A stretch of 64,000 nt of DNA from Bdellovibrionota bacterium (GCA_050952645.1 JBMNLI010000010.1:285644-349643); one strand, 5' to 3'; positions 15,801 through 62,098 are shown, counted from the first letter of the stretch. The notes: generated by a model from the letters alone, not told the origin. Made by a program: numbers and translations.

Positions 15801-18601
15801 TTTCTTAAATACGCCTCACCCGTGATATCTAGCACGGGAGAAGCGTGTTTTTTAAAAATAATATCTGCATGATTTATTAAAAACTTTTTATTTCTTAAAC
15901 CAAAAAAACCTTCAGAGCCTTGAATATTACCCGTTATAATTGGAAACTTACTTAGCCCTGTTAAAGAAAGGTCGCAACCTAAAAGAGCATCGACCCAGTC
16001 CATTTTTATTCTTATATTATCATCGCTCTTTATATTTACATCTAGCTCAATATTTATATCATCTTGTTTTTTAGAATTTAACTGAATGTTTTTTTCATAA
16101 AAAAACACGCTATCTTTTATAAATCCTAAAATTGCATCAAGCGTAATATTTTTAACAAACTCTAGGCTATCTATCTTAATATTTCCTTGTAGCTTAGGAA
16201 GAAATTTACCTTTTAATAAATCTAAATTACCACTTAACACAAAGCTAGTATTATTATCAACATAAAGGTCTACTTTTCTAAAATCTATCTTAGCATTCGA
16301 CTTTTCAAAATTTAAAATATCGATATTTCCAGAGGCTTTTGCTCGTCCTCCATTTATTCTTGCGACTATCTCTTTTATTTCTACCCAGAATCCTTTTAAG
16401 ATAAAATCTCCTCTTAATTTTTGAATACTAATATTGCTCGATTCTAAATAGACATTTCCATCAGTTATTTTTGCACTTCCATAAATTTGAGGCGATGAAA
16501 CTGGCCCTTTTATATTTATATTTGTTATTATTTGCCCAGATAACTCATCTAAAAAGGGAGCGAAATCTGCAAAAGAACTTACATTAAAATTACCATCAAG
16601 GTGCATATCGATGTTTTTTGAAAAATCTACATTTCCACTTATCGTTATATTATTTTTACTGCTTTGTCCCCGTAAAACTATTGGTTTAATATTTAAAATA
16701 CCATTATTTATAGGCAGAGTAGTCGGAGTTTTTAAAAGCAAATCGTGTGGAGCGCAACCTAGCACGGTTTTAGGAATATCAACTTTGCCGTTTCCTTTTA
16801 GCATATTTTTTATATTAAAAAAATATTCTACATCGGCGCTTAATCTTGCACATTTTACTTTCGGGCTATATTGGTTAGGATTAAAATCTTTTAACTTTAA
16901 AGTAAATTTACTTTCATATTCTTCATTAAGATTTAAATTCAAGTTTGTTTCTATCGATTTTAAAGGATTAGATAAACTTACTAGCACTTTGCCATTTTCT
17001 AAACTTGCTCTTCCGCTAAGTGCAGACTCGCCGCAAAAATCCTTAGACGTAAGACCTATAGTGCCACTTCCTTTAAGTGTATAAGGCGACAGCCCTCCTC
17101 TAAGAGAAATATTTGAAGTTAAGAACCAATAAGTTTTATCGTTTATATTTTGTAAAGGTAGTTTATTTATATCGATATAAAAATTTTCTACAAAAACTTT
17201 TCCATCTTCATTAAATTTTATTTTCCCTTCTCCTTGGATATAATCTTTAGAGTTTATTTTAAACTCAAGCTCGTCGTTATAATATAATAGTGATAAATTT
17301 TGTTTAGGCGTTTTAAATGCCAAACCGTCGATAGAGTTTATTTCACTTTCAAGCTTTATTTTATAGTCGCTAGGAGTTCCAAAAATTCCCACAGTCCCTA
17401 AAACATCTTTTAGCTTAACCGAGGAGTAATCGAGTTCATCAATCTTAAATTTTAATTTCGTATTAAATTTATCATCATCTATTATTAAATCTTTTATAGA
17501 AGAAACGTTTATACCATCACCAGTTAGAGAAATATTTTTTAATTTAAAGTAAGCTCCATCTAAGTTTATACCAGTTTCTAGTGTTGCTAAAAATTTATCG
17601 ATAGTGATAGGAGTTTTTGAGATAAATGCTTGAGTTAAAATATCTTTGTTATATTCTAAGTCTACATCTCCTTTTATTATAATATTATCGATATCTCCTT
17701 TTACTACTCCGTTAGTTTTTAAATTATACGTAAAATAATCTGAAAAAGATTTATCTAAAAAACGGTTATCGAAACTTCCTCTCCACGCTCCATTAGCAAA
17801 CGAGTTATCTTCCCGGATATCGAGTTTTGCAGCGACTTTACTACCTAGGCTATTTAGCAAAATGTTTTTTATTATCACGTCGTAGCTATCGTGTGGAGAA
17901 AGTATGCTTAAATTTAAACTTCCAAGAGCTATTTTATTTTTTTTATTATTTATTTTATCGTTTAGTTTGTAATTGTTTTGATTATAATTATTTTTGTTAT
18001 GATTCTTTTGTTTGTAAAAGATAGCTACATTATCTACATCTGTATCGATTAAAAAATCTTTATTTTTATCTTGAAAAACTCTAAGGAAAAGCCCTTGTCC
18101 GTTTAGCACGATAGAGTCCGTTAGCCACTCATTGAATGATGTTGAATATACTAGTAGCTCTTTTAGCAATACTTTTATAGCAGAGGTTTTATAATTTGGG
18201 TCGGGGTTTTCACTAATTAAATAATCTATAAATTTATAAGTTTCGCTTTGAGGTAGTATTCCTTTTGAATGTCCCGTATCTAAAACTAATCTTTTTAAAA
18301 TAATAGTTTTATCAAATATTTTTGCTAACGATACTTTTACTCTAACTTGTTTAAAAGATAAGACTTCCCCTTTATTATCGCAAACGATTCTTGGATTATT
18401 TACATACGCATTTAATCTAATAAACGACACGTGGTGTTCATCAGTTTCTAAGTGGCACTTAGGCAAGCTACTTTTTATTTCATCATCTAACAGCTCTATT
18501 ACTAGTTCTCCGACGTAATTCTGCAAAGCTAGAATGCCTAATCCGCCTAGAACTCCTATACAAAATCCAATAAATAGTAATAGAATATATTTTTTAAACA
18601 T
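12887..18601 (-). CDS. TamB(AsmA-like)-POTRA-Omp85 (TamA/BamA-like) fusion protein
   Basis: N-terminal TM anchor, long beta-rich TamB/DUF490-like region (GDLNSPKVNLMSD.GLSQKEIFNLLASG), repeated POTRA motifs (FEGND..., GYLNVRV), YYLGGANSIRGY loop and C-terminal FSIGAKF beta-signal. Confidence 0.88.
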   Translation of the reverse strand: MFKKYILLLFIGFCIGVLGGLGILALQNYVGELVIELLDDEIKSSLPKCHLETDEHHVSFIRLNAYVNNPRIVCDNKGEVLSFKQVRVKVSLAKIFDKTIILKRLVLDTGHSKGILPQSETYKFIDYLISENPDPNYKTSAIKVLLKELLVYSTSFNEWLTDSIVLNGQGLFLRVFQDKNKDFLIDTDVDNVAIFYKQKNHNKNNYNQNNYKLNDKINNKKNKIALGSLNLSILSPHDSYDVIIKNILLNSLGSKVAAKLDIREDNSFANGAWRGSFDNRFLDKSFSDYFTYNLKTNGVVKGDIDNIIIKGDVDLEYNKDILTQAFISKTPITIDKFLATLETGINLDGAYFKLKNISLTGDGINVSSIKDLIIDDDKFNTKLKFKIDELDYSSVKLKDVLGTVGIFGTPSDYKIKLESEINSIDGLAFKTPKQNLSLLYYNDELEFKINSKDYIQGEGKIKFNEDGKVFVENFYIDINKLPLQNINDKTYWFLTSNISLRGGLSPYTLKGSGTIGLTSKDFCGESALSGRASLENGKVLVSLSNPLKSIETNLNLNLNEEYESKFTLKLKDFNPNQYSPKVKCARLSADVEYFFNIKNMLKGNGKVDIPKTVLGCAPHDLLLKTPTTLPINNGILNIKPIVLRGQSSKNNITISGNVDFSKNIDMHLDGNFNVSSFADFAPFLDELSGQIITNINIKGPVSSPQIYGSAKITDGNVYLESSNISIQKLRGDFILKGFWVEIKEIVARINGGRAKASGNIDILNFEKSNAKIDFRKVDLYVDNNTSFVLSGNLDLLKGKFLPKLQGNIKIDSLEFVKNITLDAILGFIKDSVFFYEKNIQLNSKKQDDINIELDVNIKSDDNIRIKMDWVDALLGCDLSLTGLSKFPIITGNIQGSEGFFGLRNKKFLINHADIIFKKHASPVLDITGEAYLRNSAGDNSLVIVDITGDLNSPKVNLMSDAGLSQKEIFNLLASGEGFSNGALSDSNSQAFLYSISSFLSSPSISGLKNIFNSITSIDSLSITSKYNKRTGTSEPAIIAEKKLTDEIVISGESIVGGSAGSTKISTFYYLTQKAYIDTYFETASTSAVGIDLNYNVISSSNKLTDYSFEGNDNYSELKLRSVLYINERKVVSKEKVKEIRRNLKRFYIKQGYLNVRVKSRIRSVDNFVKKVVFIINEDKKFSIKDINISSEKIASKIKRAVSHFKGKAFSEDNRKEIQKIIINILKDEGYLSARISEDFVLTGKNKVIVNINIESFKKYVFEFKGSRVFSREDFLKTINFKERSYPFGLNVVQLLIEGMDRLYRENGYLLTTIDYELIKEDDTQTYIISVKDEDISKVSSVVLNGNEKLSTEKIYEKIKSIDKDNYKKFLNPKFAIEEDIIELENIIKKIYRDYGYTRVKVKHSLNILDNNDVSIVYNIKEGEKHYITNVAVNGLPEELKIKYTQKITVPRKLRLVEKIKSSLKNAGYLNYELIEKIDKETDSLTITIIPNEKVKVSDIKIIGNSKVEEFTILKNLKINKGDVYLEDKIIESKNALLKLGLFNKISFSLIDNKENNFEKTLLIEVEEKAFNNLDVGIGVNSEYGLHLLTRAANKSLFKDGKTISLGADLFYDNITHGSVSQGSADLRFIEPSVFGSNVGFSKDYRYQRFTTSTYEFDLSRYVDGVSIYMPFENDLSLYFGQNFSVESLDNVSQCAIIGNYDDGNYNLSFLVASLKYDKRDDMLNPTSGYAMSLEHKLASKLFLSDAEFHSLELHVNSIFPFWEDFNFSSNNIVGASFAYGDTSQVPIAHRYYLGGANSIRGYRENSLGRRGSDGAVIGGDVLFANNFELNYFILETFSIHSFLDVGNVFLRDEGVKLSDLKYSTGVGFRFNLPIGPIGFDFAVPLNKESYDDSFRVHFSIGAKF

Positions 18602-20396: not shown

Positions 20397-23300
20397 ATGA
20401 GTTTTCTAAAAAAGAAATATCAAAAACGAGAAATACGCTATAAAACTATATATATATGTTCACGCATAAAACTACATTATAAAAATTCATACTATAAAAA
20501 ACCATGCTATGAAAAATTTAAATATATTTTACAATCGTTCTTTTTAGCATCCTTTTTATTATTCTCTTTATTTTTTATCACATTATTTTTAAGTAGCACA
20601 TCATTTGCATTCGAGCCTATATTAGATAGCGTAAAACAGGTAGCGAGTAATAGGAGTACTACTTGCGCTATTTCCGCAAGTGGGGAGCTTTGGTGCTGGG
20701 GGAATAATAATTATAGCCAAATAACTACATCATCAGATACTTACGTAACTGCGCCTACAAAAATTACTGAACTAGTAAATGTTAGTGCGGTTAGTATAGG
20801 GACTTATCATGTATGTGCTATCTCAAATAAAAAGCTTTACTGTTGGGGAAGAAATAGCCATGGACAATTAGGAGTTGAAAATACAGACATCACTACCACT
20901 CCGCAATTAATACTTTCAGAGTTTAATATAAGTCAAGTTGCCGCAGAGTATATTAATACGTGCGCTTTAACTACATCAGGTAAACTTTTTTGCTGGGGCT
21001 ATAATGAATATGGTAATGTTGGAGTAGGTAGCCTAGCTTCTATTATAACGACTCCTACTCAAGTTTTAACAGATGTAAGCTTTGTATCATCTACACAAAC
21101 CACCACATACAATGGCGGCGCTAGATGTGCTATTAAGACTAATGGTGAGCTTTGGTGTTGGGGAGGAAATAGTTACGGGCAAGTAGGAATTGGAGATTTA
21201 AGTATTACTAAAGTGCATACCCCAAGAAAAATATTGGAAAACGTTCAAAGTGTTAGTCTAAGTGAATTTCATACTTGCGCTATAAAAACTAATGGAAAGC
21301 TTTATTGCTCGGGGAAAAATAATTCCAACCAAATCATTACTAGCACTGAAAATAACATTCCTTCTCCAATAGAAATATTTAACAATGTTAAACAAGTAGC
21401 AATAGGACGTAATCACACGTGTAGTATTACTAAAGACGATGAGCTTTACTGTAGAGGGTCGAACAGTGCAGGGCAAATAGGAAAAGGAAACAGCACTTCT
21501 TCTAGTTCGTTTTATAAGGTTTTAGATAATATTTCTAGCATATCACTTGCACCACTTTCTACTTGTGCTATAGCAAGCAATGGCGACCTTTACTGTTTCG
21601 GGAATAATAATTTTGGACAGATAGGAAATAACTCTACTACTGATCAAAAAACTCCATATTTAGTTTTAAGCAATGCAAAGCGAGTTATCAATAATGAAAC
21701 TAACACGCACGTAATAGATACAGCTGGAAAACTTTATAGTATTGGAAATAACACTTCAGGACAAATTGGAAACGATAGAATATTGGTACAAGAAAATAAA
21801 ACTCAAATTTTAACTGGAGTAAAAAATATTTCTCCTATTGGTACTAGCGTTTGTGCAAGTAAGCTAGATGGAAGCACTTATTGTTGGGGATTAAACGCTT
21901 ACAGACAACTTGGAAATGGAAGTGGTGTAGAAAGCTCTACGCCAGTTTTAGTAAGCATTTATAGCGATAAAGGAGGCATTACTAATATTAAATCTTTTTC
22001 AAGCAATACTGCTACTAATTGTGCTGTAAAGGAAAATGGCGACCTTTTTTGCTGGGGTAATAATTGGTATGGTAATACAGGTGCTACAGTGCCAGTGCTA
22101 ACAGGTGCTACTAGCGTTAAAGGTGGAACTAATCATAACTGTGCTTTAAAAGATGAGTTTTTATATTGCTGGGGGAGAGGAGAGGAAGGACAAATCGGAA
22201 TAGGGACAAATGATAATATTACTACTCTACGCCAAGTTTCTACATTAGGAGAGATTAGCGATTATAGCCTTGGTTATAATTCGACTTGCGCCATAAAAAA
22301 GGAAGATAAAACTCTTTGGTGTTGGGGCGATAATTCATATGGTCAATTAGGAATAGGAAATACTAATAATCAAAAGTTACCAACAAGGGTTCAAGGATTA
22401 ACTAATGTTAGGTCGGTAGTAATGGGTAATTCTTACGCTTGTGCTACAACTGAAAGTAATAATCTTTATTGCTGGGGCTTAAATAAAAGTAGGCAATTAG
22501 GCATAGGCACAACAGAAGATAGCTCCGTGCCAGTATTTGTTAAAAGCAATATAAAAAGCGTAGCATTATCTTACGACCATACTTGCGCTATAGATTTATC
22601 TGATGAGCTTTGGTGTTGGGGAAATGGCTTTGGTGGAAAGCTTGGAAATGGAGATACTTCAAACAGAGATACACCTCAAAAAGTCTTAAATTTAACTGAT
22701 GTTCAAAAGGTTAGTTTAGACACTTCTTATTCTTGTGCAAAAACTGGAAATATAGATGGAAACAAACTTTATTGTTGGGGGTTAAACAACTACTACCAAC
22801 TAGGTCTAGGCAATAACACTAATCAAGACACCCCTCAGCTAGTCTTAAGCGGAATAAAAGATTTTACTGTAGGACAAAATGCTACCTGCGCTATAGATGG
22901 CGAAGATAATCTTCTTTGCTGGGGACTAGATAACTATGGACAAGTAGGAGATGGAGTAGAAATAAGAAAAGAAACCCCGACGCAAATTTTTGCTGGTGGC
23001 ATAGCTCCTACTTACCCTACTAACTGCTCTACGCACTGGAACTATGGAAATTTAGGAGAAGCTTGCGATAATGGCTTAAGTAATAATTGTTTGCAAGCAG
23101 GAGTGCTTGCCTGCTACAATAGCGAGACCGATAGCCCTACCATAGTTTGCAACGCTGAAACGCCTCCATGCTGCAAAGATAACCTATACTCTTCTATCGG
23201 CTTAAGCTGCTCTGATGGCGTTGGCGTCTGCTTAGAAAATGGAAGCTACTACTGCTCTGGGCTTATCTCCGATAGCGCCGTTTTATGTAGCGCGGAAGCT

Positions 23301-24491
23301 AACACCGATGCGCAAACTGAGGAGCTATGCGATGGCTTAGATAATGATTGCGATGGCGAGATAGATGAAGATTTTTTTATAGGGCAAGATTGCACAGAAA
23401 AAACCGGAGAGATTGTAGTAGATGGCACTACGCACGATATTATAGGAAAAGGCGTTTACGAATGTAAAGATACTACTCAAAATTATTGCGACATTTACGA
23501 TACGGATGGAGATGGCGTTATAGATAGCCAAGACTTATGCCCTAACTTAGATGATAACGCTACTTTTACTTATTACGGCGTGCAAGCACAGTATTACGGG
23601 AAAACTTATAAAAACACTGATGATATGGACGGCGATGGAATAATAAACTGCCTAGATGAATGCGTAGACGATGAGCCTGAAGACGATCCTTTCTCAGATT
23701 TTAACATTAAAAGATTTAATGCATTAGAAAACGGTTGCGATGAAACTCCTAAAGGATACTCATGGACTCTAACTCCAACTCCTACTCTAACTCCCACACT
23801 AACGCCTACTAAAACTCCTAACCTTACTCCTACTCTTACAGCTACCGCTACTTTTACACCAACTCCTACTTTAAATAATACTAATACATATACTTTCACT
23901 CCTACTAATATTATAACGTCAGAAAATACTAGCACGCCAAGCTTTACTTATACTTATACATCTATTCCTACTAAAACTAATACGCCTACTATAGAGCCTA
24001 CTAGCACGATAACTTTTACCCCTACAAACACGCAGACTTTTACTCCTACTCTTACTCCTACTTTTACGCCTAGTTTTACTCCAAGTTTTACGCCTACCGC
24101 TACACCAACTAAGACGCCGAGGAACTCTAATGCGATAAAGCTTGCATATCCAAGAATGGAAGTGCCAAGACCAGAAATTAAAAAATTAAAAAATAGGGGT
24201 GCTCTACTTATAAAACTTCCTAAAGTTTTAAAAGCTACCATTAGAAAGAATAAAAAAAGAAATAATGCGAGATTTAAATATTTAATACATATAAGAAAAT
24301 TAAAAAGGCTTGGCATTAAAGATAATTTTTTCAAACTTGGAAAAAAGATTTTAACTTATCAAAGTAGCGTTAGATACAAAACTAAAAAAATGGACAAAGG
24401 CATTTACTCTATTAGGTATAAGATAGTTATAACTAAAGGAAATAAAACTAGGCATACTAAATGGAGTAAAAAAGCGTTAGTAGAGATTTAA
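20397..24491 (+). CDS. Secreted RCC1/BLIP-II-like repeat protein with Cys-rich/Ca-binding repeats, a Pro/Thr linker and a basic C-terminal domain
   Basis: Many TCA...LxCWGxNxxGQLG repeats; ELCDGLDNDCDGEIDED; DTDGDG; (TP)n. Start position uncertain. Confidence 0.88.
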   Translation: MSFLKKKYQKREIRYKTIYICSRIKLHYKNSYYKKPCYEKFKYILQSFFLASFLLFSLFFITLFLSSTSFAFEPILDSVKQVASNRSTTCAISASGELWCWGNNNYSQITTSSDTYVTAPTKITELVNVSAVSIGTYHVCAISNKKLYCWGRNSHGQLGVENTDITTTPQLILSEFNISQVAAEYINTCALTTSGKLFCWGYNEYGNVGVGSLASIITTPTQVLTDVSFVSSTQTTTYNGGARCAIKTNGELWCWGGNSYGQVGIGDLSITKVHTPRKILENVQSVSLSEFHTCAIKTNGKLYCSGKNNSNQIITSTENNIPSPIEIFNNVKQVAIGRNHTCSITKDDELYCRGSNSAGQIGKGNSTSSSSFYKVLDNISSISLAPLSTCAIASNGDLYCFGNNNFGQIGNNSTTDQKTPYLVLSNAKRVINNETNTHVIDTAGKLYSIGNNTSGQIGNDRILVQENKTQILTGVKNISPIGTSVCASKLDGSTYCWGLNAYRQLGNGSGVESSTPVLVSIYSDKGGITNIKSFSSNTATNCAVKENGDLFCWGNNWYGNTGATVPVLTGATSVKGGTNHNCALKDEFLYCWGRGEEGQIGIGTNDNITTLRQVSTLGEISDYSLGYNSTCAIKKEDKTLWCWGDNSYGQLGIGNTNNQKLPTRVQGLTNVRSVVMGNSYACATTESNNLYCWGLNKSRQLGIGTTEDSSVPVFVKSNIKSVALSYDHTCAIDLSDELWCWGNGFGGKLGNGDTSNRDTPQKVLNLTDVQKVSLDTSYSCAKTGNIDGNKLYCWGLNNYYQLGLGNNTNQDTPQLVLSGIKDFTVGQNATCAIDGEDNLLCWGLDNYGQVGDGVEIRKETPTQIFAGGIAPTYPTNCSTHWNYGNLGEACDNGLSNNCLQAGVLACYNSETDSPTIVCNAETPPCCKDNLYSSIGLSCSDGVGVCLENGSYYCSGLISDSAVLCSAEANTDAQTEELCDGLDNDCDGEIDEDFFIGQDCTEKTGEIVVDGTTHDIIGKGVYECKDTTQNYCDIYDTDGDGVIDSQDLCPNLDDNATFTYYGVQAQYYGKTYKNTDDMDGDGIINCLDECVDDEPEDDPFSDFNIKRFNALENGCDETPKGYSWTLTPTPTLTPTLTPTKTPNLTPTLTATATFTPTPTLNNTNTYTFTPTNIITSENTSTPSFTYTYTSIPTKTNTPTIEPTSTITFTPTNTQTFTPTLTPTFTPSFTPSFTPTATPTKTPRNSNAIKLAYPRMEVPRPEIKKLKNRGALLIKLPKVLKATIRKNKKRNNARFKYLIHIRKLKRLGIKDNFFKLGKKILTYQSSVRYKTKKMDKGIYSIRYKIVITKGNKTRHTKWSKKALVEI

Positions 24492-46417: not shown

Positions 46418-49400
46418 CTATTTTCTTTGACAAGTCCTAGTAGCGCCATTGCAACTAGCCCCTACACATAATTCACAAGTTAGACCTTCACAACATATCG
46501 TACCGCCTTGAAAGTTATCTCCTTCATAAAAACAAGACATCCCTTCACTATAACAGGAGCCAAAGCCACAGCAATATTTATTATCGTACTGGCATAAATA
46601 ATACTTATATTGCGTATTATGCTTACTACAAGAATTAGCATCACAATCTTCTCTTATACACCCAGGATGTATATCTTCACAAACATTATTTTTACATTCT
46701 TTTCCATCTTCGCAACATACGCCATTACATAAATCTTGAGAGCAACAATATTGTTCGTTATATATTCTACCAGTTTTACAACACGCTTTTTTACCGCTAC
46801 TATCTGTATACTCTGTTTCATCGCTAGAACAACCACACCTAGCACCACCACCTTCGCCTATACATCTATTTACAGGACAACATTGCCCTTCACCGCCACA
46901 CATTATATCTAGCTCTCCAGGGCAACACGCTCCACCAGCTCCATAATTACTACCCTGATTTTTGGTTTCTGTATAATTTGGAGCATCTACACTACAACAT
47001 TGACCTAAATATTCATTATAATCTACATTTGTAGGGCAACAAGCAAATTCTTTTGTATCCCAATTACTGTATGCACAATGCTCATTATTTTTACAACAAA
47101 AATCACCACACATTCCACCACTATTTTCTTCTGCAAGTGGATTGCAACAAACTTCTAAATATTCACCCGTAGAACTATTTACATTTCGCCCAAAATGCCA
47201 GCTATTTGGATTAGCACAACAGCCTTGCGAGCCGCCTTCTGGTTTCTCATAAACTTCTCCATCACAACAAGCTTGAGTGCCATCGTCTTCTTTATTATAA
47301 ACTTTACCATCTCCACAGCATAAGTAAGCACTAGCTGCGAAATCGCTACTATAATTTCCCGGCTTCTCTTCTCGTTCAGACACTAGCCTTGCACATTTAT
47401 TAGCATCACAACATGCACCACCACAATGAACTTGTCCCTCTTTTCCGCAACACGTTTGAACCGCTAATCTTTCGAATTCTATCTCCCCAGTTTCTTCATT
47501 TATTCCAACTTTAAAAGATCTTATTGTGCCTTTTATATCGGTGCAATATTGATCCTTTTCACAACAAGCAGCGCGGCAGAGAAGTTCTTCTTGGTCATCA
47601 CAACAAACTTCATCGCCTTGCATATTATAACCTGTAAATTTAGGAGAATTATCTGGGCAACAAACCGTCTTAGGATAACTTTCGCCTTCATCTTCTATGA
47701 TCTCTCCCGTCTCATTTCCAACACTATCTTCAGGGCATTCCGAATCACATACAAAAGATTTGTTATCATATACATCTATTACATACCCTGCCGTCTGTCC
47801 ATCTTCACAGCATAATTTTTCATCATTATTTCCTTCAAAATAATTATCTTCTTTGCAACAACTATCTCCTGGTTCTCCATTTTCTTTATCACAACACCCA
47901 TTATTTTCGCCACCACTAGGATCATTTTCTCCACTAGGATCTAACATGCACACATAACCGCTAGGACATAAACACCCAGACACACTTAATGACGAACTAC
48001 TAGAATATTCTTCAGGATTTTCTCTAGAACTAAGAAGAAGATTTAGATGACTCTAAGCTAGATTGACTACTAATATAAAAATTACTTCGAGACGAACTAC
48101 TTTTACTAGATGACGCAGACACTCTACTTAACGAAGACGAAACACTTCCTAGAGATATAGAAAAACTACTAGGTGCCGAAGAATAATTGCTAGACTTACT
48201 AGACAATGAAGAACCACTAAATAAAGAACCGCTAGATATACTAGATACAGATGATATAACACTACTTAAGCTACTAAAAGAACTACTACTAGGTGATAAA
48301 CTTTTACTACTTAAAGAACTTAAGCTACTACTACTAGGCGATAAACTATTTTTGCTAGATGACGATGAACTCTTACTAAAAGAACTACTACTAGGTGATA
48401 AGCTGCTTTTGCTTGATGAACTGCTCTTACTACTAGAAGATGAACTCTTACTAGAACTACTACTAGGTGAACTACTCTTGCTCGAACTGCTTTTACTAGA
48501 ACTACTTGACGATGAACTCTTACTAGAACTTAATGAAATAGACGACGAACTACTCTTACTACTAGAAAATGAACTCTTACTAGAACTACTACTACTTAAT
48601 GAACTCTTTGAACTGCTGCTAGGTGAAGAACTCTTACTAGGTGAACTACTAGAACTACTTTTACTAGATGAACTTGATAAGCTACTTTTACTACTTAACG
48701 ATGAACTCTTATTTGAACTAGAACTTAAAGAACTGCTACTAGACGAACTGCTCTTACTAGAAGAAGAACTTAAACTTAAAGAACTGCTAGATGAACTACT
48801 CTTATTTGAACTAGAACTACTCTTGCTACTAGACGAAGAACTCTTACTAAAACTTGAACTTAGAGAACTAGAAGAACTACTCTTACTTGAACTAGAACTA
48901 ATAGACGACGAACTCTTACTACTAGATGATGAACTCTTGCTAGATGAGCTACTACTTGGCGAACTACTCTTACTTAATGATGAACTCTTACTAGAAGAGC
49001 TAGACGAACTACTACTACTTGGCGATAAGCTTGAACTTAGAGAACTAGAAGAACTACTCTTGCTAGAACTTTTGCTACTAGATAATGAACTTGAAGGTGA
49101 ACTTAAAGATGAGCTAGAACTACTTAAACTACTACTACTAGAAAAACTTGAAGAAATGCTACTACTAGATGCACTGCTACTAGATAAACTGCTTCTACTA
49201 GACGATGAACTGCTAGATGATGAACTACTACTAGACGAACTCCCCTTAGGTGAACTAGATGTATCGAAAATTTGCGCAGTCCTAAAAAAACCTACATGAA
49301 ACGAATCTGCTATGAGAGGCTCATCATCTAACAACTTAAATATATCTAATATTATACCAGACTTAATAAAAATCTTCCCTCCCTTCATTGTCCTAAGTTT

Positions 49401-50007
49401 TATCGTCTCACTTTCTTTATCAACGGGAACAAAATCTACATATTTTTCCTTCCTCCACAAACTCCCAGGGAGTTTAGTAGTCTTTATACTATCATTATCT
49501 AATTTTATACCAGGAATTAAAATACCATACTTAGCTATACACGGCTCCCCTCTTAACTCAAAATATTTAAAGCCTAGTTGCTTAGGTGTCGCCACCTTTT
49601 TCGATAATGCTAAATTATAAGCCGTAATCCAAAATTTACATATAGTAGGACAATCTTTAGATAGAGCTTGCACCTCAGGCACTTCGCATACTTCATCTAT
49701 TTCACTTCGAGTTTTCCCCCTTACAGACTCACAATTAGGAACGTCTGTATCTCTTAAACCGTCTAGGCAATACTCTCTTAAGGCTACCATAAAATGAGGT
49801 GAAACATCGACTACAAATTGCACTGGCCTATTTTCTACAGCTATTAACAAGTCTAGATTTCTCTCATTTAAACATACTATATGAAAAACAAATACGAAAA
49901 CATGCGTCACTACCCATGTAAGTGCAAAATAATAAAAACAAACTATAGCCTGTTTCTGTTAAAATACTACCACGACTCGAATGAGACTTTTTATATTTAT
50001 TTTTCAT
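46418..50007 (-). pseudogene. ~1195-aa TadE/pilin-like N-terminus, Ser-rich stalk and Cys-rich tip, split by two +1 frameshifts
   Basis: ORFs 49864-50082, 48030-49910 and 46418-47983 join by deleting one base near 49949 and one near 48032, giving MKNKYKKSHSSRGSILTETAIVCFYYFALTWVVTHVF... and ...SKSSSSSRENPEEYSSSSSLSVSGCLCP... Confidence 0.75.
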
Positions 50008-52921: not shown

Positions 52922-53134
52922 AAAACGCCTTTACAAAAATTTTAAGATAAAAAACATCACAGATTTACAAAATGTTATGATATTTTACCAATAATTTCAA
53001 TAGAATATTTAATGGTCTACTAGTTTTGTTTGAAAGTAGAATTCACACCTCACACAAAGCCAAAATACCTTCTGTTGTTTATATCAAAAGATAAGCTATT
53101 TTAAATATACCTAAATTCCCATTTTTTATATAGT

Positions 53135-53729
53135 CTACACTTTAGTATTTATTATTTTGTCGATAAAAATCTTCTGGTCAATTTCTAATGCATCTAAAAT
53201 ATCCTTTTGTTTTTTTGTTAATGGCCGTAGTAGTATGCTTAAATTTTTATTATCTATACGTCTAATCATTTTAAGTGCCTCTAAAATTCTATGAATAGTT
53301 TTTTCTACTTTTTTATTATTCTTATTTATAGTTCTTTGTAAGTCTGACCACATAATTAAGCTAAGAAAAGAAATAAAGCTTTTGCCGTCAGTAGTTTTTT
53401 CATTATGCGTTAGCATACGATCATTATCTAATTCATTTTTTAAATTATCAAAAGCTTTCTCTGCAAAGTCTCGTCGCGAATAAATAAGAAGTGCTTCTTG
53501 TGGTGTCATTGCAGAGCGGTTGCTTAAAAAAGCAAAAACTCCTAGCATAGGTAAGATATCTGTAATTTTTTCATGATCTTTTTCATAGCTTTTTAACTGT
53601 GCTTCTTTATTAGTCTCTATTTTATAATATTTAGAGTAGCGACTCATGCTTGCAGGCTTTTCCTTTTCTGTCTTTTTTATACGAAATCCTTTTTTTTGGA
53701 ATTGGAATTGAAATCTTTAATAAAGCCAT
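53135..53729 (-). pseudogene. IS1634-like transposase with large internal deletion
   Basis: N-terminal MALLKISIPIPKK... is joined out of frame to C-terminal YSRRDFAEKAFDNLKN...GKSFISFLSLI...PLTKKQKDIL. Confidence 0.85.
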
Positions 53730-53836
53730 TTTGCCTCCTATTTTATTATCAAAAAGTTAAAATTGTCTCCTTTTCTGTAGACTATAGAAGTGTAGTCACA
53801 AAGCAAAAAATGCCAATAGTTTTTGTTTAAAAATTT

Positions 53837-55696
53837 GGTTCTTCACGTTTTAGGTGGGTTGGCATAAGTTAAACATTGTTCTAGTTTAATGATAATAACT
53901 AAGAAAAAAAGGGGAAAAAGAAGATTGTTAAGATAATTGGTTTAAAATATTTTTGAAATGAGGTAAAACAGGACATGATATCATAATATTTATGATATTT
54001 ATTATTTATCCTCCAACCTTATTTTGAAAGGAGTAAACCATGTTCTGTGAAGAGTATAGTAAACTTTTTGATTATTTTATTCAAGCTAAAAATTATAAAT
54101 ACATAAATATTATTAAAGAAAAAATAGTGCGACAATAGTTGTTGAGGAACCAAGTGATTTAGCTCAAAGAGTCTGCAAACATTGTGGTAGTCGTGATGTA
54201 ATAATACACGATACAGACGAAATAACATTGAAGGATTTTCCTAGGATTCCTTATATCCGACAATACGTTAAAGTGCTCTATAAGAAATTTAAGTGTAAAT
54301 CTTGTGGTTGTGTGCATTCTAGTCCTATACAGTGTAGGTATTGTAATCTAATGATAACTAAGACGGCAGCGATTGCTATAAAACTTCTATTAAGAATGGA
54401 TATAAGTGTAAGAAAGATACAATCTTTTACAGGAATTCATTGGGACACTATAAGGAAATTACATGAGGAAGAAATATCAGAAACTATAAAAGCACGTCAA
54501 GAAGAGATAAGATTAAGTGGCTATAAGCCACGCTATCTTGCGGTTGATGAGTTTGCAATTCTTAAGGGTCATATTTATGCTACGTGTGTTATGGACATAG
54601 AATTAGGAGATGTTTTGTGGGTTGGTAAAGGCAAGAGTATTAAGGATTTTAGTAAGTTTTTTGAATCAGTTGACAAGGATTATTTAAGTGAGGTTAAGGC
54701 TGTAGCAATTGATATGAATGCCTCTTATAATTATTTAATTAACAAATATCTTCCTAATAGTAAAATAATTTATGATAGATATCATATGCAGTCTCAATTT
54801 GGAAGAGAAGTGATAGGGTCTGTAAGATTATCCGAAGCTAAAAAACATAAAAAAGAAGCGACGAAATTGAATGATTCAGCGAGTAAAATAGAAGATAAAT
54901 CTCAAAAGAAAGAAATTAAAAATAGAGCTAAGGAAGAGCAGCTAAAGTACAGAGAAATAAAAAAAAGCAGATGGACTCTACTAACTAGTAATCATAAATT
55001 ATCAGAAGATAGCAAAGATGCTTTAGCTAATATATTATCGGAACATAAAAATTTATCTACTTGTTATGCGATGAAAGAGGAGATGATAAATCTTTTTAAC
55101 CTAACAGCCGAGAAAGGTTGGTTTGATTGGTTTAAGGCAGCTCTTTCAAGTGATATTGAACAATTAGAAGACTTTGCGAAAAGAAAAGTTAATCGTTTAG
55201 TTGGACTTATTAGTCATGCCATACACAATATCAGCACTGGAAAATTAGAGGGATTTAATAATAAAATAAAAGTTTTAAAAAGAATTGCATATGGATACAG
55301 AAATATTAATTACTTTTTTAATCTCATAAAATTTATTTCAATTGGTGAAAAGATTCCTATTAAACGCACTGCTCTAGCTAGAACTTAGCATTGCCTTTTG
55401 CGTAAAAATTACCAACATTAAACTAGCATATAAATTTCAATTTGTTGCTAAAGTCTCAAGATTGAAGAGCTAAGAACAGTCTTTGTGAAAGTTATCCACA
55501 GCCTGACAGCTTGACCTTTAGCTTTTAATTGCTAGGCCTTGCTATCAGTTATGGATAACTTTCCCTAACAACTCTAATGTTTATTTTTGCAAATAAAATT
55601 AACTATTATTTTAATAAAACAGCAACAGTTTTATAAAATAATTTTGAAAATTCACATTATAAAAAAGACTCTAACCCACCCAAAACGTGAAGAGCC
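53837..55696 (+). mobile_element. ISL3-family insertion sequence
   Basis: IRs GGTTCTTCACGTTTTAGGTGGGTT / AACCCACCCAAAACGTGAAGAGCC; 8-bp TSD AAAAATTT. Confidence 0.93.
54040..55388 (+). pseudogene. ISL3 transposase with a -1 frameshift at the A6 run (54119-54124)
   Basis: CKHCG and CKSCG zinc finger, LAVDEFA, AIDM, YDRYH, LEGFNNKIKVLKRIAYGYRN; the ATG at 54040 (RBS AAGGAG) is out of frame with ORF 54228-55388. Confidence 0.85.
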
Positions 55697-55841
55697 AAAA
55701 ATTTTTAAAATTTTTATAAAAAAACTTAATTAAATAAATATGTTAGGGAAAATATAATATTAGGAAATCTAAATGTAGAATTAGTTTTTCGATGTAGACT
55801 ATATAAAAAATGGGAATTTAGGAAATATAACAACATCTTGC

Positions 55842-56987
55842 TTATTCCATTCCAAATATACGCTCTATTAAATCACATTCTCCATTTATAAAAATAGAAT
55901 CGCAATAATCTGTTAATTTTAAAATTTGCCTTTCTCTTTGATTTTTGAGAACTTTAGAATTATGCCATAAATCAAACAATGACTTGTATGAATAAAAATA
56001 ATCATCAACTTCTAAATCTTTTCCTAAAAATGGACAAGCCTTAATTCTGCCAGATGGCAAAATAACCAAACTACGTATTGCTGCCAAGCAACCTAAGCCA
56101 TTTGAACCTTGTAGCAATACTCCTAAAGAACAATCAACGCTAACACATTCATAAGATAACAAAATTTTGTTTAATTTTTCTTTGTTATTATTCGATGCAA
56201 AATCAACTTTGTTCTTTTTATACCAATCATTATTTCCTTCTGACGGCTTTACCATTAATAGCTTAATGTTATAAGGATTAAGAAGTAATAAATTATTTAT
56301 TATCTCTTCAATATTATTAAAAATATATTTCGTAAGAATTACATTAAATCCATATTTTATGCCATTGTCAGCAAGGCATTGAGTCTTTTGTGGTAAATTT
56401 TTATTACTCATAATATCATCATAACTAGGGTTATTAAGACTTAATTGTATATGCCCAATTCCACTTTGAGAACATTTTATTATTGATTCGTTGTTCAATA
56501 ACGTTCCATTTGAACAAATTGAAGTAAAAATATTGTTATCATAAGCAAACTTTATCACATCATAAATATGTTTATATAAAAAAGGCTCTCCACCTCCAAG
56601 TTGTATTCTACAAACACCAATTTTGGATGCATCGCTTATAATATTCTTGACCATTAAAAAATCAGTGTCGACTAAATCATCTTTTTCCTGATAGCAGCCG
56701 ACACAATTTAAATTACACCTATTTGTTAAACGGATAATAATCGACTCGGGAGCTGATAAAAATTGCTTACTATAATTATTATGAATTATCATCGGAGCAA
56801 ATTTTAACTGCTCTCTACTAATGTGAAAGGTTTTTTCCAAAAACAATAATTGATTTTCTTCTAATTGCTCACAAGAAATAATATAAGTACTAATAATATT
56901 TAATGCATCTTTATTGACTTGCCAAATATCACCAGAACGACAATCCCAAACAATTGCACCAAAGTATTCTTCTCTCACAAATAACAT
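55842..56987 (-). CDS. Radical SAM protein with MftB/RRE-like N-terminus and twitch/partial SPASM domain
   Basis: CNLNCVGC, GGGEP, SNG; GCLAAIRSLVILPSGRIKACPF; N-terminal VREEYFGAIVWD. Confidence 0.9.
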   Translation of the reverse strand: MLFVREEYFGAIVWDCRSGDIWQVNKDALNIISTYIISCEQLEENQLLFLEKTFHISREQLKFAPMIIHNNYSKQFLSAPESIIIRLTNRCNLNCVGCYQEKDDLVDTDFLMVKNIISDASKIGVCRIQLGGGEPFLYKHIYDVIKFAYDNNIFTSICSNGTLLNNESIIKCSQSGIGHIQLSLNNPSYDDIMSNKNLPQKTQCLADNGIKYGFNVILTKYIFNNIEEIINNLLLLNPYNIKLLMVKPSEGNNDWYKKNKVDFASNNNKEKLNKILLSYECVSVDCSLGVLLQGSNGLGCLAAIRSLVILPSGRIKACPFLGKDLEVDDYFYSYKSLFDLWHNSKVLKNQRERQILKLTDYCDSIFINGECDLIERIFGME

Positions 56988-56999
56988 ACAATAATTCCT

Positions 57000-58088
57000 T
57001 TATTTTATTAAAGAAGATATTCTCTCTCTCATATTTTCTGGTAAAATTGGCAAAACTTTCTCTTCTAATACACCCATTAAATAACATGCAATCGGATCAA
57101 AATCATATAAAGATCCTTTTTCTGCCAGTGCATCAGCACGACACCCACCACCACAAATATTAACATACTTACAATTGGGACATTTATTTAAATCTTGTAC
57201 TTTGATTGACAATAGCGACTCTCTTTCTTTAGATAAGAAAATATCCTCAAGGGATTGCTCTAGTATATTTCCACAAGATAGTGCTAACGTTGGACATATA
57301 GCAACATTTCCATCAGAACGAATAGTTACACCATCACTAATATATGAACATACACCACTATTCAAATCAAAACGAAAACATTGTTCATTAAGCATCTGAG
57401 ACTTAAATAAATTTTGAATTTCTAAAACAAACTGTGGCAACTCATCTAAGTATCTTTTTATAATATTGCACAATACTTCAACTACTAAAAAATTAGGGGC
57501 TAACGATTCCCAAAAACTCTCTGCTCTTCCTTGTTTAAATGGAATATCAATAAGCCATTTTTGAATATCGAGATTTTTAAAGTCATCAAACATATTATTA
57601 AAATCTTGATAATTTATTGTAGTTGCAAGCGTATTAATAACAACGGGATAATTATACAACCTGAGTAAACGTAACGAATCGATAATCTTCTTATACGATG
57701 AACCTACTCGGATAGCATCTGCTTTTGAATATCCGTCGAAACTTATTCTAAACTCCAACTTAGGCTCAATCAAAGAAAAGTTTTTACAAAACTCCTCATT
57801 GATATTCATTGCATTTGAGAAAACTGCAATTCTTTCAACATTTTTATTAGCAATATAATTTAACATCTCCTCACAATAAGGATAAATCAAAAATTCACCA
57901 CCTGAAATCGAAAAATCCCTACATCCAAGAGCATACGCTTCATCTATTACACATAACCACTTTTCAAAAGATATTTTGTTTAAAGACACATCATCTACAA
58001 ATCTACTATTGTAACAATATTTACACCTTAAATTACACAGACCACTCGGCTCTATATGAACCGAACTTAAAATTTTATTTTTCTTCAA
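57000..58088 (-). CDS. Radical SAM/SPASM protein
   Basis: CNLRCKYC, SGGE, SFDG; full SPASM pattern C...DGNVAIC...GNI...CPNCKYVNICGGGCRA...DPIAC. Confidence 0.93.
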   Translation of the reverse strand: MKKNKILSSVHIEPSGLCNLRCKYCYNSRFVDDVSLNKISFEKWLCVIDEAYALGCRDFSISGGEFLIYPYCEEMLNYIANKNVERIAVFSNAMNINEEFCKNFSLIEPKLEFRISFDGYSKADAIRVGSSYKKIIDSLRLLRLYNYPVVINTLATTINYQDFNNMFDDFKNLDIQKWLIDIPFKQGRAESFWESLAPNFLVVEVLCNIIKRYLDELPQFVLEIQNLFKSQMLNEQCFRFDLNSGVCSYISDGVTIRSDGNVAICPTLALSCGNILEQSLEDIFLSKERESLLSIKVQDLNKCPNCKYVNICGGGCRADALAEKGSLYDFDPIACYLMGVLEEKVLPILPENMRERISSLIK

Positions 58089-58206
58089 CTTATTTCTTCA
58101 ACAAAAATACTATACATTAAAATAAGACAAAATGCCTATAAAAAACAAATTTCTAAGTATTAACAAATGTTCTTTTTAATAATAGACAATTACTGCTAAG
58201 ATAACA

Positions 58207-58344
58207 TTAAGAATAGCCACAATCTGCCATATGACCTTTAAAAGCTTTAGGCTTGGCAAACTTTTCAACATTTTTTTTGTTTTGATTTGTTAAACGATCT
58301 CTATTTTCTGAATTAGAAACTACTCCGACATCTTTAATTATCAT
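58207..58344 (-). CDS. Putative RiPP precursor peptide (45 aa, not in the ORF track)
   Basis: Own translation MIIKDVGVVSNSENRDRLTNQNKKNVEKFAKPKAFKGHMADCGYS*; co-oriented directly upstream of two rSAM genes; GGAGG RBS at 58376-58380. Confidence 0.7.
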   Translation of the reverse strand: MIIKDVGVVSNSENRDRLTNQNKKNVEKFAKPKAFKGHMADCGYS

Positions 58345-58599
58345 ATTTTTTTTTCATCATAATTATCATACCACCCCTCCAAGCATCTTAAAATTTATTT
58401 ATTCAATTTTTTTAATAAACCAACTATAATATTAACACTCAAACCAAACTACCTACTAATCAACTACGCTTCACATTACATGCATTAAATCACTTCGTTG
58501 AACGGGAAAACACTCAACATAACTCGCGATACCATATGCAACGCCATTAAGACACCTCTACGCTTAAGACATCTCCACAAGAAGATAAACGACGAGATG

Positions 58600-60225
58600 T
58601 TAAAACAACCTAGAGAATAAAGGTTCGATCTCTTTTACAATTATATCAAAACCTTTCTCATTTAAACCACTAAAATCTTGGAGTATTATATCACAATTAT
58701 CAATATTGAGCAACTCTAAAACTTTCGAAGTTGCTTCAGGCATTACTGGCATCAAAAGTATTGAGCAGCACCTTAGTGATTCTAACGTAACGTATAAACA
58801 CTCATTTTCTTCTTTTGTTTTCCCCTGCTTTGCTAAACTCCATGGCTCCATATCTCCAAAATATTTGTTCGCATCTTTTAAAATATGTATAACACTTAAA
58901 ATCGCTTCATCTACTCTTAATTCATTAATTTTCTCTTGCACACCACTAGTTAAATTATAAACTTTAGTTAAAAGTTCTTTACTGCTTTCATTTTTTAAAT
59001 TTACCACAGGAACTTTCCCATCAAAATCTCTTATTGCAAGCTTATGCACACGACTTACTAAATTTCCATAAGTATTAGCAAGCTCATCATTTAACCTTTC
59101 TTTCATTTTTTGAGTGTCAAACGTAATATCATTTCCGAACTTCCCCCCAGTGCAAATAAAATATCTAAAAGAATCCACTCCTATCTTATCTGCTAAGTTT
59201 GTAGGAGATACTACATCACCTTCAGATTTACTCATTTTTTCCGATTGAGAATTTAACCACCAGCCATGAGCAAATATTTGCTTAGGCATACTTAATCCCA
59301 TAGCCATTAACATCGTAGGCCAATAAACTGCATGCGTTATTAAAATATCTTTCCCGATTAAATGATGACACTCACTCCAAAATTTATAAAAATCATTACT
59401 CTCCTTATTCTCATAACCAATCCCCGAAACATAATTTAAAAGAGCATCAAACCAAACGTAAGTTACGAAATCTTTATCAAATGGTAGCTCAATACCCCAA
59501 TTCACTCGGCTCTTAGGTCTACTAATACATAAATCTGAAATAGGCTCTCTTAAAAATCCTAAAACCTCTTGCATTCTTTTAGGGGGGTTAATAAAACCAT
59601 CATGTGTTTTAATATAATCTACTAATCTTTCTTGATATTTTGACATTCTAAAAAAATAATTCTCTTCAGTCACTAAAGCGACCTCTTTTCCAGTTGGGGT
59701 TTTACCATCAACTAAATCTTTTTCAGTATAAAAAATTTCCTCACTTACACAATACCAACCCTCATAATCTTTCTTATAAATATCTCCATTTTTATAAAGC
59801 ATATCTAAAACTATAGTTACTACTCTTTTATGACTAGGGTCTGTTGTTCTCATGAAATGATTAGGATTAACTTTTAACTTATCCCACGAAGTTTGAAACT
59901 CAGAAACTATTTTATTTACATATTCAATAGTAGGCACACCTTGCTTTTCGGCAGCTTGATAAACTTTTTGACCATGCTCATCGGTTCCTGTCATAAAAAA
60001 ACTTTCTCTACCAAAAAACTTTTGATACTTATTTACTACATCTGCAACTATCGTCGTGTAGGCATGCCCTAAATGCGGAACTGAATTTGGATAATAAATT
60101 GGAGTTGTAATGTAAAATGGTTCGTGATTTAAATTCACACTTGAATTTTCTATAGATACAGATACAGGATTTTTATCTTTTTCAAACATTTCAATCTCCA
60201 TATAAAAGAAACAAGCATGATACAA
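58600..60225 (-). CDS. metG: Methionyl-tRNA synthetase (short form)
   Basis: YITTPIYYPN..PHLGHAY, GTDEHGQK, YVWFDAL, KMSKS. The true start is probably slightly downstream. Confidence 0.97.
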   Translation of the reverse strand: MYHACFFYMEIEMFEKDKNPVSVSIENSSVNLNHEPFYITTPIYYPNSVPHLGHAYTTIVADVVNKYQKFFGRESFFMTGTDEHGQKVYQAAEKQGVPTIEYVNKIVSEFQTSWDKLKVNPNHFMRTTDPSHKRVVTIVLDMLYKNGDIYKKDYEGWYCVSEEIFYTEKDLVDGKTPTGKEVALVTEENYFFRMSKYQERLVDYIKTHDGFINPPKRMQEVLGFLREPISDLCISRPKSRVNWGIELPFDKDFVTYVWFDALLNYVSGIGYENKESNDFYKFWSECHHLIGKDILITHAVYWPTMLMAMGLSMPKQIFAHGWWLNSQSEKMSKSEGDVVSPTNLADKIGVDSFRYFICTGGKFGNDITFDTQKMKERLNDELANTYGNLVSRVHKLAIRDFDGKVPVVNLKNESSKELLTKVYNLTSGVQEKINELRVDEAILSVIHILKDANKYFGDMEPWSLAKQGKTKEENECLYVTLESLRCCSILLMPVMPEATSKVLELLNIDNCDIILQDFSGLNEKGFDIIVKEIEPLFSRLF

Positions 60226-60253
60226 TTATATAACAATCATTATTACTATTCAA

Positions 60254-62083
60254 CCTAAATTCCCCAAATTTTATCTTTTCCCCATTTTCAAATAAAACAC
60301 TGTATTTTTTATTGATATTTTAAATAGTTATATATTTTTTTATATTGATATTTCTTTTTTGCATGGTATAATTATACTATACATATTAAGGAGGTTTTTA
60401 TGAAAAAAACAATAAAAATAATCGACTTACCAAGCAAGCAAATTGGACGCAAGAAAAATAAAAATGGGACTACTTATATTTATTACAGGTATAATTTTCT
60501 TCGTGAAAACGGGAAAACTACGTTTGACGAGACAGGTATAGGGAAGTTAGATGAGAGTGGTAAAAAATTAATTCCTAATAGGAATTACTATGATTTTTTT
60601 CCAGATGATTCTGATAAGTATATTGTAAGCAATAAATCTTTTGGTCTTACTTATGTTTTAAATAAGATTGTAAAAGCTTTAAGACTAGACAAGACACTGT
60701 CTTCAATTTTTGGAAATGATGCATACGATATTTTAACTTTAGCATTTTATATTTTAGCAAATGGAAATGTAGTATCGAATGCTCAAAGTTGGATAGATGA
60801 GAGTGTTTTACCATATAAAATTTCTAAATTAACAAGTCAAAAAATAAGCCGTCTATTTGAACGAATTGACGATGAAAAAAGACTTGATTTTTTTAAGAAA
60901 TGGACGAAGCAACATTTAGCTCAAGAATGTTGGTATTATGACGTAACTTCGATATCTTCTTATAGTAAAAAAATAAGCATATTAGAGTTTGGTTATAATA
61001 GGGATATGGATAAATTACCACAAATAAAATATAGGTATGTGCTATGGCTCTACGACGAAGCTTCCTTTATTTTATCAAGTTTATAATGGCAGTATTACAG
61101 ATAAGACGTATTTTAGTTTTCTTTTAAGAGACTTTCCGCTTATTAGTCCTAATAATCGCATTAACCTTGTTACGGATCAAGGTTTTGTGACGCAAGATAA
61201 TTTAGCGCAAGTTGCAAATGAAGAAGGACAAAAGTTTGGACTACTTTGTCCTTTGCCATTACATTGGAATGACGCTAAAAGAATACTTGAAAATCACACT
61301 GCATTTATTAAGCAAGATGCTAATTATATAAAAGATAGCACTACTTTTGGTTGTTCTGTAACAGATATTGTTATGGGTCAACCTGTAAAGATTTATATTT
61401 ATTATAATATGGAAAAGGTGTCATATGAGATAGTTCAATTTTATGAGAAAATTTCTAGAATGGAAGAAGAATTAGAAGAGTTAAAAAAATTAAAATACTC
61501 TTTGCTAGATTATAAAAAATATAATAAATATTTTGATATTAAAATAACTAAAGAGAGTTTCACTTATGAAAGAAAATCAAAAGCTATAGATGAATACTTA
61601 AAAGATTGTGGCTTCTTAATTTTGATTAGTATTGATTGTGATTTAACTCCAAGTGAAGCACTTTGTCGTTATCGTCAAAAAGATATAATCGAAAAAACAA
61701 TTTTACCAATTAAAAAATGAAATTGATTTCAAAAGACTTAAAAACGCATAATCTTCAAACCACAGAAGGAAAACTTTTTGTTGGATTTTTAGCTCTTATT
61801 CTTAGAAGTTATATTCTTAATCTACTCAAAAATGATACAAAGCAAAAGAATTTTAATATACCTGATATCATTAAAGAGCTTCAAAAGATTAAAGTTGTAG
61901 AAACTAAAAGTAGTAGTAAGTTAATGGTTCCGTTAACAAAAAAACAAAAGGATATTTTGAAAATTTTTAATATCAAAGAAGATGATTTTTTAAAAAATAT
62001 TTTTAAGAAAAAGTAGAATTATAATGTTTATATACCACTATTAAAAACGCGTTTGTATGCGTATAATTTTATGGGAATTTAGG
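60254..62083 (+). mobile_element. IS1634-like insertion sequence
   Basis: IRs CCTAAATTCCC / GGGAATTTAGG; 6-bp TSD ATTCAA. Confidence 0.88.
60400..62016 (+). pseudogene. IS1634-like DDE transposase split by two +1 frameshifts
   Basis: YYDVTSISSYS...GYNRD, TDQGF, YRQKDIIEK and GKLFVGFLALIL across three ORFs; an extra A near 61028 and near 61700. Confidence 0.88.
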
Positions 62084-62098
62084 ATTCAACAAAAAAAG

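Follow-up and report, generated by a model that had tools for sequence, protein, structure and literature searches.

A 64,000-nucleotide stretch of a Bdellovibrionota genome (GCA_050952645.1 JBMNLI010000010.1:285644-349643; the window) encodes, ahead of two radical S-adenosylmethionine (radical SAM) enzymes that we call rSAM-A and rSAM-B, an unannotated peptide that is, judged from its sequence, the candidate precursor of an undescribed radical SAM peptide system. The conserved unit of this system is rSAM-A, a short peptide and a gene for an aminoacyl-tRNA synthetase (aaRS), and in most loci that have the main peptide motif and an aaRS nearby, one residue of the motif, designated X, is the amino acid of the neighbouring synthetase. 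We favour, at just short of an even chance, the interpretation that the products could be microcin C-like inhibitors of aaRSs, with X encoding the target (here methionyl-tRNA synthetase, MetRS) and the aaRS gene providing immunity. A previous reading of the window from its sequence alone had pointed to the 45-residue open reading frame (ORF) and to two co-oriented radical SAM genes downstream, and all of its coordinates are confirmed (Table 1): on the minus strand the peptide ORF is followed after 118 nt by rSAM-A and, after a gap of 12 nt as reported there, by rSAM-B. The link to aaRSs was not part of that reading; metG, directly upstream, belongs to the system.

A short peptide beside a radical SAM/SPASM enzyme

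rSAM-A carries the domains PF04055 and PF13186 above the Pfam cut-offs, and its SPASM cysteines (C247, 265, 303, 306, 312, 316 and 335) are invariant in 44 sequences. Both it and rSAM-B fall below the cut-off of every curated NCBIfam enzyme family among the best 25 profile matches. Homologues of rSAM-A include four proteins at 47-53% identity (the nearest, P0122-P0125, which stand outside the locus counts) and about seventeen full-length proteins at 28-34%. An alignment-based scan of species-representative genomes returned 55 loci, 29 of them (L090-L118) full-family, and searches of small genomes (401 + 401 + 401) gave ten new matches, four above 330 bits and six in a longer sister family. We define the family as 33 homologous loci; the 330-bit split from the sister family was set after the scores were seen. 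Record titles place members in Patescibacteria, Woesearchaeota, Clostridia, Bacteroidales, Victivallales, Anaerolineaceae and others. The distribution is patchy, with the family present in about 1% of sampled small genomes; two further order-level searches added no member, 123 genomes of the window's class yielded no other member, and viral contigs, plasmids and phages yield nothing above about 30% identity. The ESM Atlas returned generic radical SAM clusters only.

The six matches at 215-285 bits, together with G1647, belong to the longer sister family, which lacks the peptide motif, and were rejected as family members. Sister enzymes (L195, L196, L197, L198, L199, L180 and L225) have 460-500 residues and an N-terminal extension; a methyltransferase-like ORF often follows them, and L195, L197 and L199 have short upstream ORFs of their own.

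The candidate precursor is more than a chance ORF, since a peptide with its C-terminal motif lies beside rSAM-A in 31 of the 33 homologous loci. The patterns, which were defined after inspection of the data, are of three kinds. The main one, [LIFV]-[KR]-[GD]-H-X with an acidic residue within three positions (the His type), is found in 18 loci and in the window; a second, L-K-N-K-Q-P-S, occurs in 11 loci and in one more that ends F-F; the third, L-K-C-R-D-G-S, is confined to a single locus. Across 106 control loci (862 kb) the His pattern matches once and the second pattern twice, and the 1.95-Mb genome as a whole gives four matches, one of which is the window ORF. The conserved residues are encoded by varied synonymous codons (all four Gly, both Lys, both His and both Ser codon boxes are used), and therefore selection acts on the protein and not on a DNA or RNA motif. 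The 45-residue peptide itself has no family match in NCBIfam or Pfam, and a protein search returned no homologue besides the peptide itself.

Many precursors are only 9-13 residues long; their start, preceded by a Shine-Dalgarno-like sequence, stands 3-6 codons ahead of the motif. Several lack Cys or lack any aromatic residue; Cys is missing from the motif in the Pro type, the Tyr type and two precursors of the Leu type, and a conserved Cys donor, the mark of sactipeptides and ranthipeptides, is not found. The two loci lacking a motif peptide are L107, whose contig ends 37 nt upstream, and L117. At L117:5650-9008 a family radical SAM gene is accompanied by an upstream ORF of about 60 codons, a ThiF protein and a methyltransferase, with neither an aaRS nor a motif peptide; this locus is possibly a hybrid with microcin C-type adenylation. 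At L118:4997-5776 rSAM-A seems to carry a frameshift or an internal deletion, with proS and the peptide intact.

The core enzyme is rSAM-A, and rSAM-B is accessory, because the second radical SAM genes found in 6 of the 33 loci fall in unrelated groups. None of them is an orthologue of rSAM-B (22-29% local identity to it), and the pair that the sequence-only reading had treated as a unit is not one. rSAM-B was set aside as a family marker: its best homologues reach 33% identity over part of the length, and 40 relatives contain no orthologue. It also lacks three distal SPASM cysteines that are kept in its homologues. Its N-terminus is predicted to adopt the three-strand, three-helix fold of a recognition element (RRE) for peptides that are made ribosomally and then modified post-translationally (RiPPs), Foldseek matches the full-length enzyme best to SuiB and SkfB, which bear an RRE, and its N-terminal 75 residues weakly match two PqqD-family models (E 0.075 and 0.19). 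The predicted structure of rSAM-A folds like SuiB and anSME and has no RRE, which would be in line with precursors that are almost leaderless. SuiB/StrB (streptide), SkfB, CteB and anSME are the best structural matches of both models (TM 0.62-0.72, 15-21% identity), but rSAM-A differs from them in lacking an RRE and in reaching no curated cut-off. Those enzymes need Cys or Trp in the substrate, and the family precursors share neither. Within the family, all 15 His-type enzymes in alignment A4 have His at position 11 and all 11 Pro/Asp-type enzymes have Arg there, a covariation that phylogeny alone could explain.

The sequence-only reading had suggested that an MftB-MftC-like pair could make a new Cys/Tyr/His cross-linked peptide or cofactor, at a locus that is neither a canonical mycofactocin nor a pyrroloquinoline quinone (PQQ) locus; of the explanations considered here we judge such a product, mycofactocin- or PQQ-like, the most improbable. 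Like MftA/B/C and PqqA/D/E, the locus combines a peptide, an RRE and a SPASM-type enzyme (through rSAM-B only), MftC is among the top profile matches of rSAM-B (E 2e-17), and the peptide ends in Cys-Gly-Tyr-Ser. The RRE-type N-terminus bears out one part of the supposed MftB-MftC fusion, but MftB is not matched by the N-terminal 75 residues at E<=10, and MftC scores of 63.4 and 48.5 bits stand far below the cut-off of 265; PqqE scores are 58.5 and 50.5 bits against 381. The F-x-KP-x-x-F leader likened to PqqA and the C-terminal DCGY likened to MftA are not conserved in homologous peptides, in which KGH-X is conserved instead, and the peptide has no MftA-type match in NCBIfam. rSAM-B is absent from the 33 homologous loci, and downstream tailoring genes are not found: an MftE-type creatininase has no match in the 94%-complete genome (the control matched in 6 of 14). 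A PqqC search gave no match in the genome, but its control gave none anywhere either.

Residue X and the neighbouring synthetase

Within 4.5 kb, 28 of the 33 family loci and 1 of 6 sister loci have an aaRS gene, which in 18 loci is only 8-204 nt from the rSAM-A match. None was found within this distance in 26 other loci of the same scan or in 46 metagenome loci of at least 5 kb, flank lengths being similar; the metagenome loci come from 3 of 64 parts of the set and are distant SPASM loci used only as controls. Likewise, no aaRS was found among 83 control proteins scanned with Pfam at E<=1e-22. The aaRS reference set had no His, Gly, Phe, Glu, Gln or bacterial Tyr enzymes, and some of its references derive from family loci.

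An aaRS lies near 16 of the 19 His-type peptides, and X agrees with it in 14 of these (7 Cys, 2 Trp, 2 Leu, 2 Tyr and 1 Met, the last being the window with metG, the only Met-type locus seen). Where two aaRS genes are near, the matching one was scored; counting only the nearest gives 13 of 16, the nearest in L115 being AlaRS. L100 has Asp at the X position, beside a non-discriminating AspRS. At the level of clades on a quick rSAM-A tree, X matches in 8 of 10 units (exact permutation p 7e-6), and in 6 of 8 (p 1e-4) when the three Cys clades are merged; L116 and L117, which have no aaRS, were left out of the ten units, and L105 was folded into the Leu clade. The residue rule was fixed before the held-out small-genome loci were read, and all three new His-type loci then fitted it, Trp with TrpRS once and Tyr with TyrRS, a new pair, twice; the motif variant of the two Tyr loci was missed by the pattern and spotted by eye. 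The fourth new locus is almost identical to a Pro locus already in the set.

Two rival explanations do without an aaRS inhibitor. An ordinary cross-linked RiPP cassette might insert near aaRS genes, the residue match being an accident of phylogeny. Loci within a clade are not independent, and mismatched loci exist; the match nonetheless covers six amino acids and is seen in 8 of the 10 clade units, it held in the three loci found after the prediction, and control loci have no aaRS nearby, so that we regard an accident as very improbable. Slightly less probable again is an attenuator, in which the small ORF would be a leader sensing the charging of X-tRNA and the peptide would stay unmodified. 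The X codon does match the aaRS, and in the window the precursor start is overlapped by an ORF containing three Met codons. A single X codon would nevertheless have to serve as the sensor, the residues other than X are conserved at the protein level, and the RNA folds around the window's precursor start and after its stop are not significant (z 0.56 and 0.74). In about half of the loci the ORF follows rSAM-A, and it lies upstream of its cognate aaRS on the same strand in only three (L092, L096 and L098).

Proposed synthetase inhibition and other possible roles for the aaRS gene

The nearest precedent for the favoured inhibitor is microcin C, in which the last residue of a short carrier peptide becomes an aminoacyl-adenylate mimic and immunity is provided by GNAT and S66 enzymes or by an extra aaRS (PMC8323819). 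This precedent is among our reasons for preferring an X-addressed aaRS inhibitor. As in the microcin C system (MccA/MccB; MccE2, MccF), a very short ribosomal precursor has one residue corresponding to an aaRS, and aaRS, GNAT and S66 peptidase genes occur in clusters (PMC8323819); many family precursors, at 9-13 residues, are near the size range of microcin C. In L097 and L105 GNAT proteins are encoded within the operon or as a fusion with rSAM-A, further GNATs lie near L194, an S66 peptidase gene follows the peptide in L116, and a HIT protein is encoded near L108. The family differs in having neither ThiF/MccB nor MccC and a radical SAM/SPASM enzyme as maturase. The matching residue is internal and represents at least six amino acids, whereas the microcin C compounds studied target AspRS, and none of 32 family peptides ends in Asn. 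The clusters of albomycin (AbmK) and agrocin 84 (AgnB2), which carry a resistant aaRS for immunity (PMC8323819), resemble the family in that a further cognate aaRS is encoded within or close to the cluster; unlike it, they make products that are not ribosomal peptides, with one target each and many more biosynthetic genes.

In the mechanism that we envisage, rSAM-A would modify the short peptide at or beside X. The side chains at X share nothing, and several precursors lack Cys or aromatic residues; because of this, we favour a backbone-directed reaction over a thioether as the shared chemistry, perhaps through a C-alpha radical at X or X+1 that would end in cleavage, rearrangement or capture of the SAM-derived 5'-deoxyadenosyl group. 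For the His type, a ring from Lys/Arg to His is an alternative. By analogy with microcin C, the N-terminal residues could act as carrier, and after trimming by peptidases X would enter the amino-acid pocket of its own synthetase, the producer being protected by the neighbouring or duplicated synthetase gene. In the window, the Cys/Tyr tail may receive a second modification from rSAM-B, whose RRE would engage the long leader.

The copy number of the cognate aaRS offers a view of immunity. Eight of nine Cys-type genomes have two full CysRS genes, compared with 1 of the 55 genomes having any CysRS in a control order of 60 genomes; the Fisher p of 2e-8 overstates the difference, since related genomes are not independent and a single order served as control. 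The two Trp-type genomes have one CysRS each. The cassette CysRSs of L091, L097 and L102 form one supported clade across lineages; a comparison of CysRS motifs covered two motif regions only, and four motif patterns matched nothing. A second, shorter ProRS-like ORF, below the model cut-off, is present in three of five Pro-type genomes, for which the PF03129 count is too coarse a control (at least five in 5 of 40 genomes). A second cognate aaRS was found in one of two Trp-type genomes (by ORF length), in neither of two Tyr-type and in none of three Leu-type genomes. The window's genome encodes, besides the short-type MetRS, a long-type one (G000:C17:305378-307447, L169). The immunity signal from aaRS copies thus appears strong for Cys and mixed elsewhere. 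Alongside the short type, the long-type MetRS is common to all four genomes of the bacterial family searched, an unusual redundancy for genomes of 1.5-2.3 Mb.

Several observations weigh against an immunity-protected inhibitor. Only one copy of the cognate aaRS is present in G056 (Trp), G219 and G370 (Tyr), G051 and G053 (Leu) and G060 (Cys), and G054, a 0.8-Mb genome with a Leu-type cassette, has two TrpRS genes. Cassette CysRSs other than those of L091, L097 and L102 lie outside their clade, that of L092 being of the native type. Both MetRS types also occur in the cassette-less relatives G001-G003; metG of the window is typical of its order and vertically inherited, with invariant columns intact and no odd catalytic residue, and in the two nearest relatives with the same metG no cassette lies beside it. 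The residue rule has exceptions: X is Leu in L099, beside an AsnRS-like gene and AspRS, and in L105, beside SerRS; no aaRS is found within 4.5 kb in L090, L093 or L116; wider flanks of L116, L105 and L099 contain no LeuRS nearby. The 12 ProRS loci have Gln at the X position, with Pro one residue later, and L112 has lost the Pro. No exporter or peptidase is encoded in the window, in agreement with the earlier remark that neither adjoins the peptide, and none is conserved across family loci. A ThiF or other nucleotidylating enzyme is missing from the peptide-bearing loci; a ThiF-like MccB is not encoded in the window, and among 79 scanned neighbours it appears only in L117. The GNAT, HIT and S66 neighbours were chosen by eye, without controls.

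The AsnRS-like gene of L099 (4232-5620), directly before the Leu-type peptide, falls below the family cut-off and is matched mainly in its catalytic domain; it is a possible aaRS paralogue of changed function.

Alternatively, the aaRS could be a biosynthetic partner that provides X in activated form (adenylate or aminoacyl-tRNA) or carries out activation of the peptide at X, so that an X-containing metabolite is built with rSAM-A, much as AbmK works for albomycin. Such a role would account for the absent ThiF enzyme and for the tight order of the aaRS and rSAM-A genes in 18 loci; extra aaRS copies would suit a dedicated enzyme, and AbmK has both biosynthetic and immunity roles in albomycin (PMC8323819). 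It would leave unexplained why the peptide already encodes X, no conserved transferase is present to take the activated amino acid, and single-copy hosts would have to use their housekeeping enzyme. We consider this role unlikely, if still a serious competitor. Somewhat more doubtful is the idea that the modified peptide serves as an internal ligand or regulator of the cell's own aaRS, in dormancy, translation control or an addiction module, and not as an exported weapon. The minimal cassettes without exporter, the often native, single-copy state of the adjacent aaRS, the IS1634 copies that bound the window's block and the patchy distribution (including 0 of 123 others in its own class) are all consistent with it. 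Export could, however, run through general systems, and regulation does not itself predict the second cognate aaRS of the Cys-type genomes.

A wider form of the inhibitor hypothesis, which we put forward tentatively and hold to be rather unlikely as it stands, is that a radical SAM family makes aminoacyl-adenylate mimics with no ATP-dependent nucleotidyltransferase, one codon on a scaffold of 9-10 residues setting the target; at least seven synthetases, drawn from both classes, would be hit in this way, chiefly in bacteria and archaea of ultra-small size. If true, this would be a genetically programmable class of aaRS inhibitors with new radical chemistry. aaRSs are validated antibacterial targets; a scaffold that a single codon can redirect would open up a new source of inhibitors, and the ultra-small lineages of the CPR and DPANN groups would gain a concrete secondary-metabolic function. 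The residue-to-synthetase rule would predict a target for each cluster from sequence alone, which is rare for an orphan RiPP, and the minimal system, one enzyme of 360-390 residues and a peptide of 9-10, would be cheap to test. Should the aaRS prove to be a biosynthetic partner or a regulated target, the system would still provide an undescribed link between radical SAM peptide chemistry and tRNA charging.

As far as the sequence comparisons go, the system is best described as a real, undescribed variant of the radical SAM RiPP systems with a testable target code. A literature search, with supplements and most subscription journals outside its range, found no description of the family, of the residue-to-aaRS rule or of the KGH motif. 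Large atlases of radical SAM precursors have been published in subscription journals, and a listing of the cluster there is conceivable. The accessible portions of PMC13149037, PMC8939145 and a sinefungin preprint (10.64898/2026.05.21.726688) do not describe the system, and those of PMC8326336 contain no description of the family or rule.

The window locus

Table 1. Cassette genes and flanking elements in the window
Feature	Position	Strand	Remarks
Candidate precursor peptide, 45 aa	58207..58344	-	Variable leader of ~34 aa and conserved C-terminal motif
Core F-K-G-H-M-A-D-C-G-Y-S	58207..58242	-	Met after His is the amino acid of the adjacent MetRS
11-codon ORF with strong Shine-Dalgarno sequence	58334..58380	-	Three Met codons; stop overlaps precursor codons 3-4
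rSAM-A, radical SAM/SPASM, 362 aa	57000..58088	-	Family-defining; no RRE
rSAM-B, radical SAM, 381 aa	55842..56987	-	Accessory; predicted N-terminal RRE fold; degenerate second auxiliary-cluster motif
metG, short-type MetRS	58600..60225	-	Cognate aaRS of the cassette; catalytic motifs intact
IS1634 remnant	53093..55839	-	Inverted ends 53093-53139 and 55793-55839; interrupted by ISL3 (53829-55704)
Frameshifted IS1634 copy	60253..62085	+	Upstream of metG; 96-98% identical copy on another contig

IS1634 copies flank the block 55840-60250 on both sides, with ISL3 within the left copy, and the left remnant stops 2 nt beyond the rSAM-B stop codon. The whole block is found on a single contig in run X1, which is possibly the origin of the same DNA. 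Contigs from two runs of other studies, which cover most of the peptide gene (X2, 58232-58382; X3, 58212-58408), show no difference in the gene or its start.

A Shine-Dalgarno sequence at 58380-58371, identical in two other runs, serves the out-of-frame 11-codon ORF that overlaps the precursor start, and the interval 58334-58380 also contains a 10-nt direct repeat and a run of nine A. The Met-rich ORF could couple translation of the precursor to Met supply, or it could be a small duplication that weakened expression. A scan for promoters and terminators gave results no better than chance.

Elsewhere in the window, an ORF of 626 aa (48030-49910, minus strand) contains a long Ser/Lys low-complexity repeat, with similar repeats at L169:15412-16998, and two ORFs are very long, one of 1904 aa (12887-18601, minus strand) and one of 1364 aa (20397-24491, plus strand).

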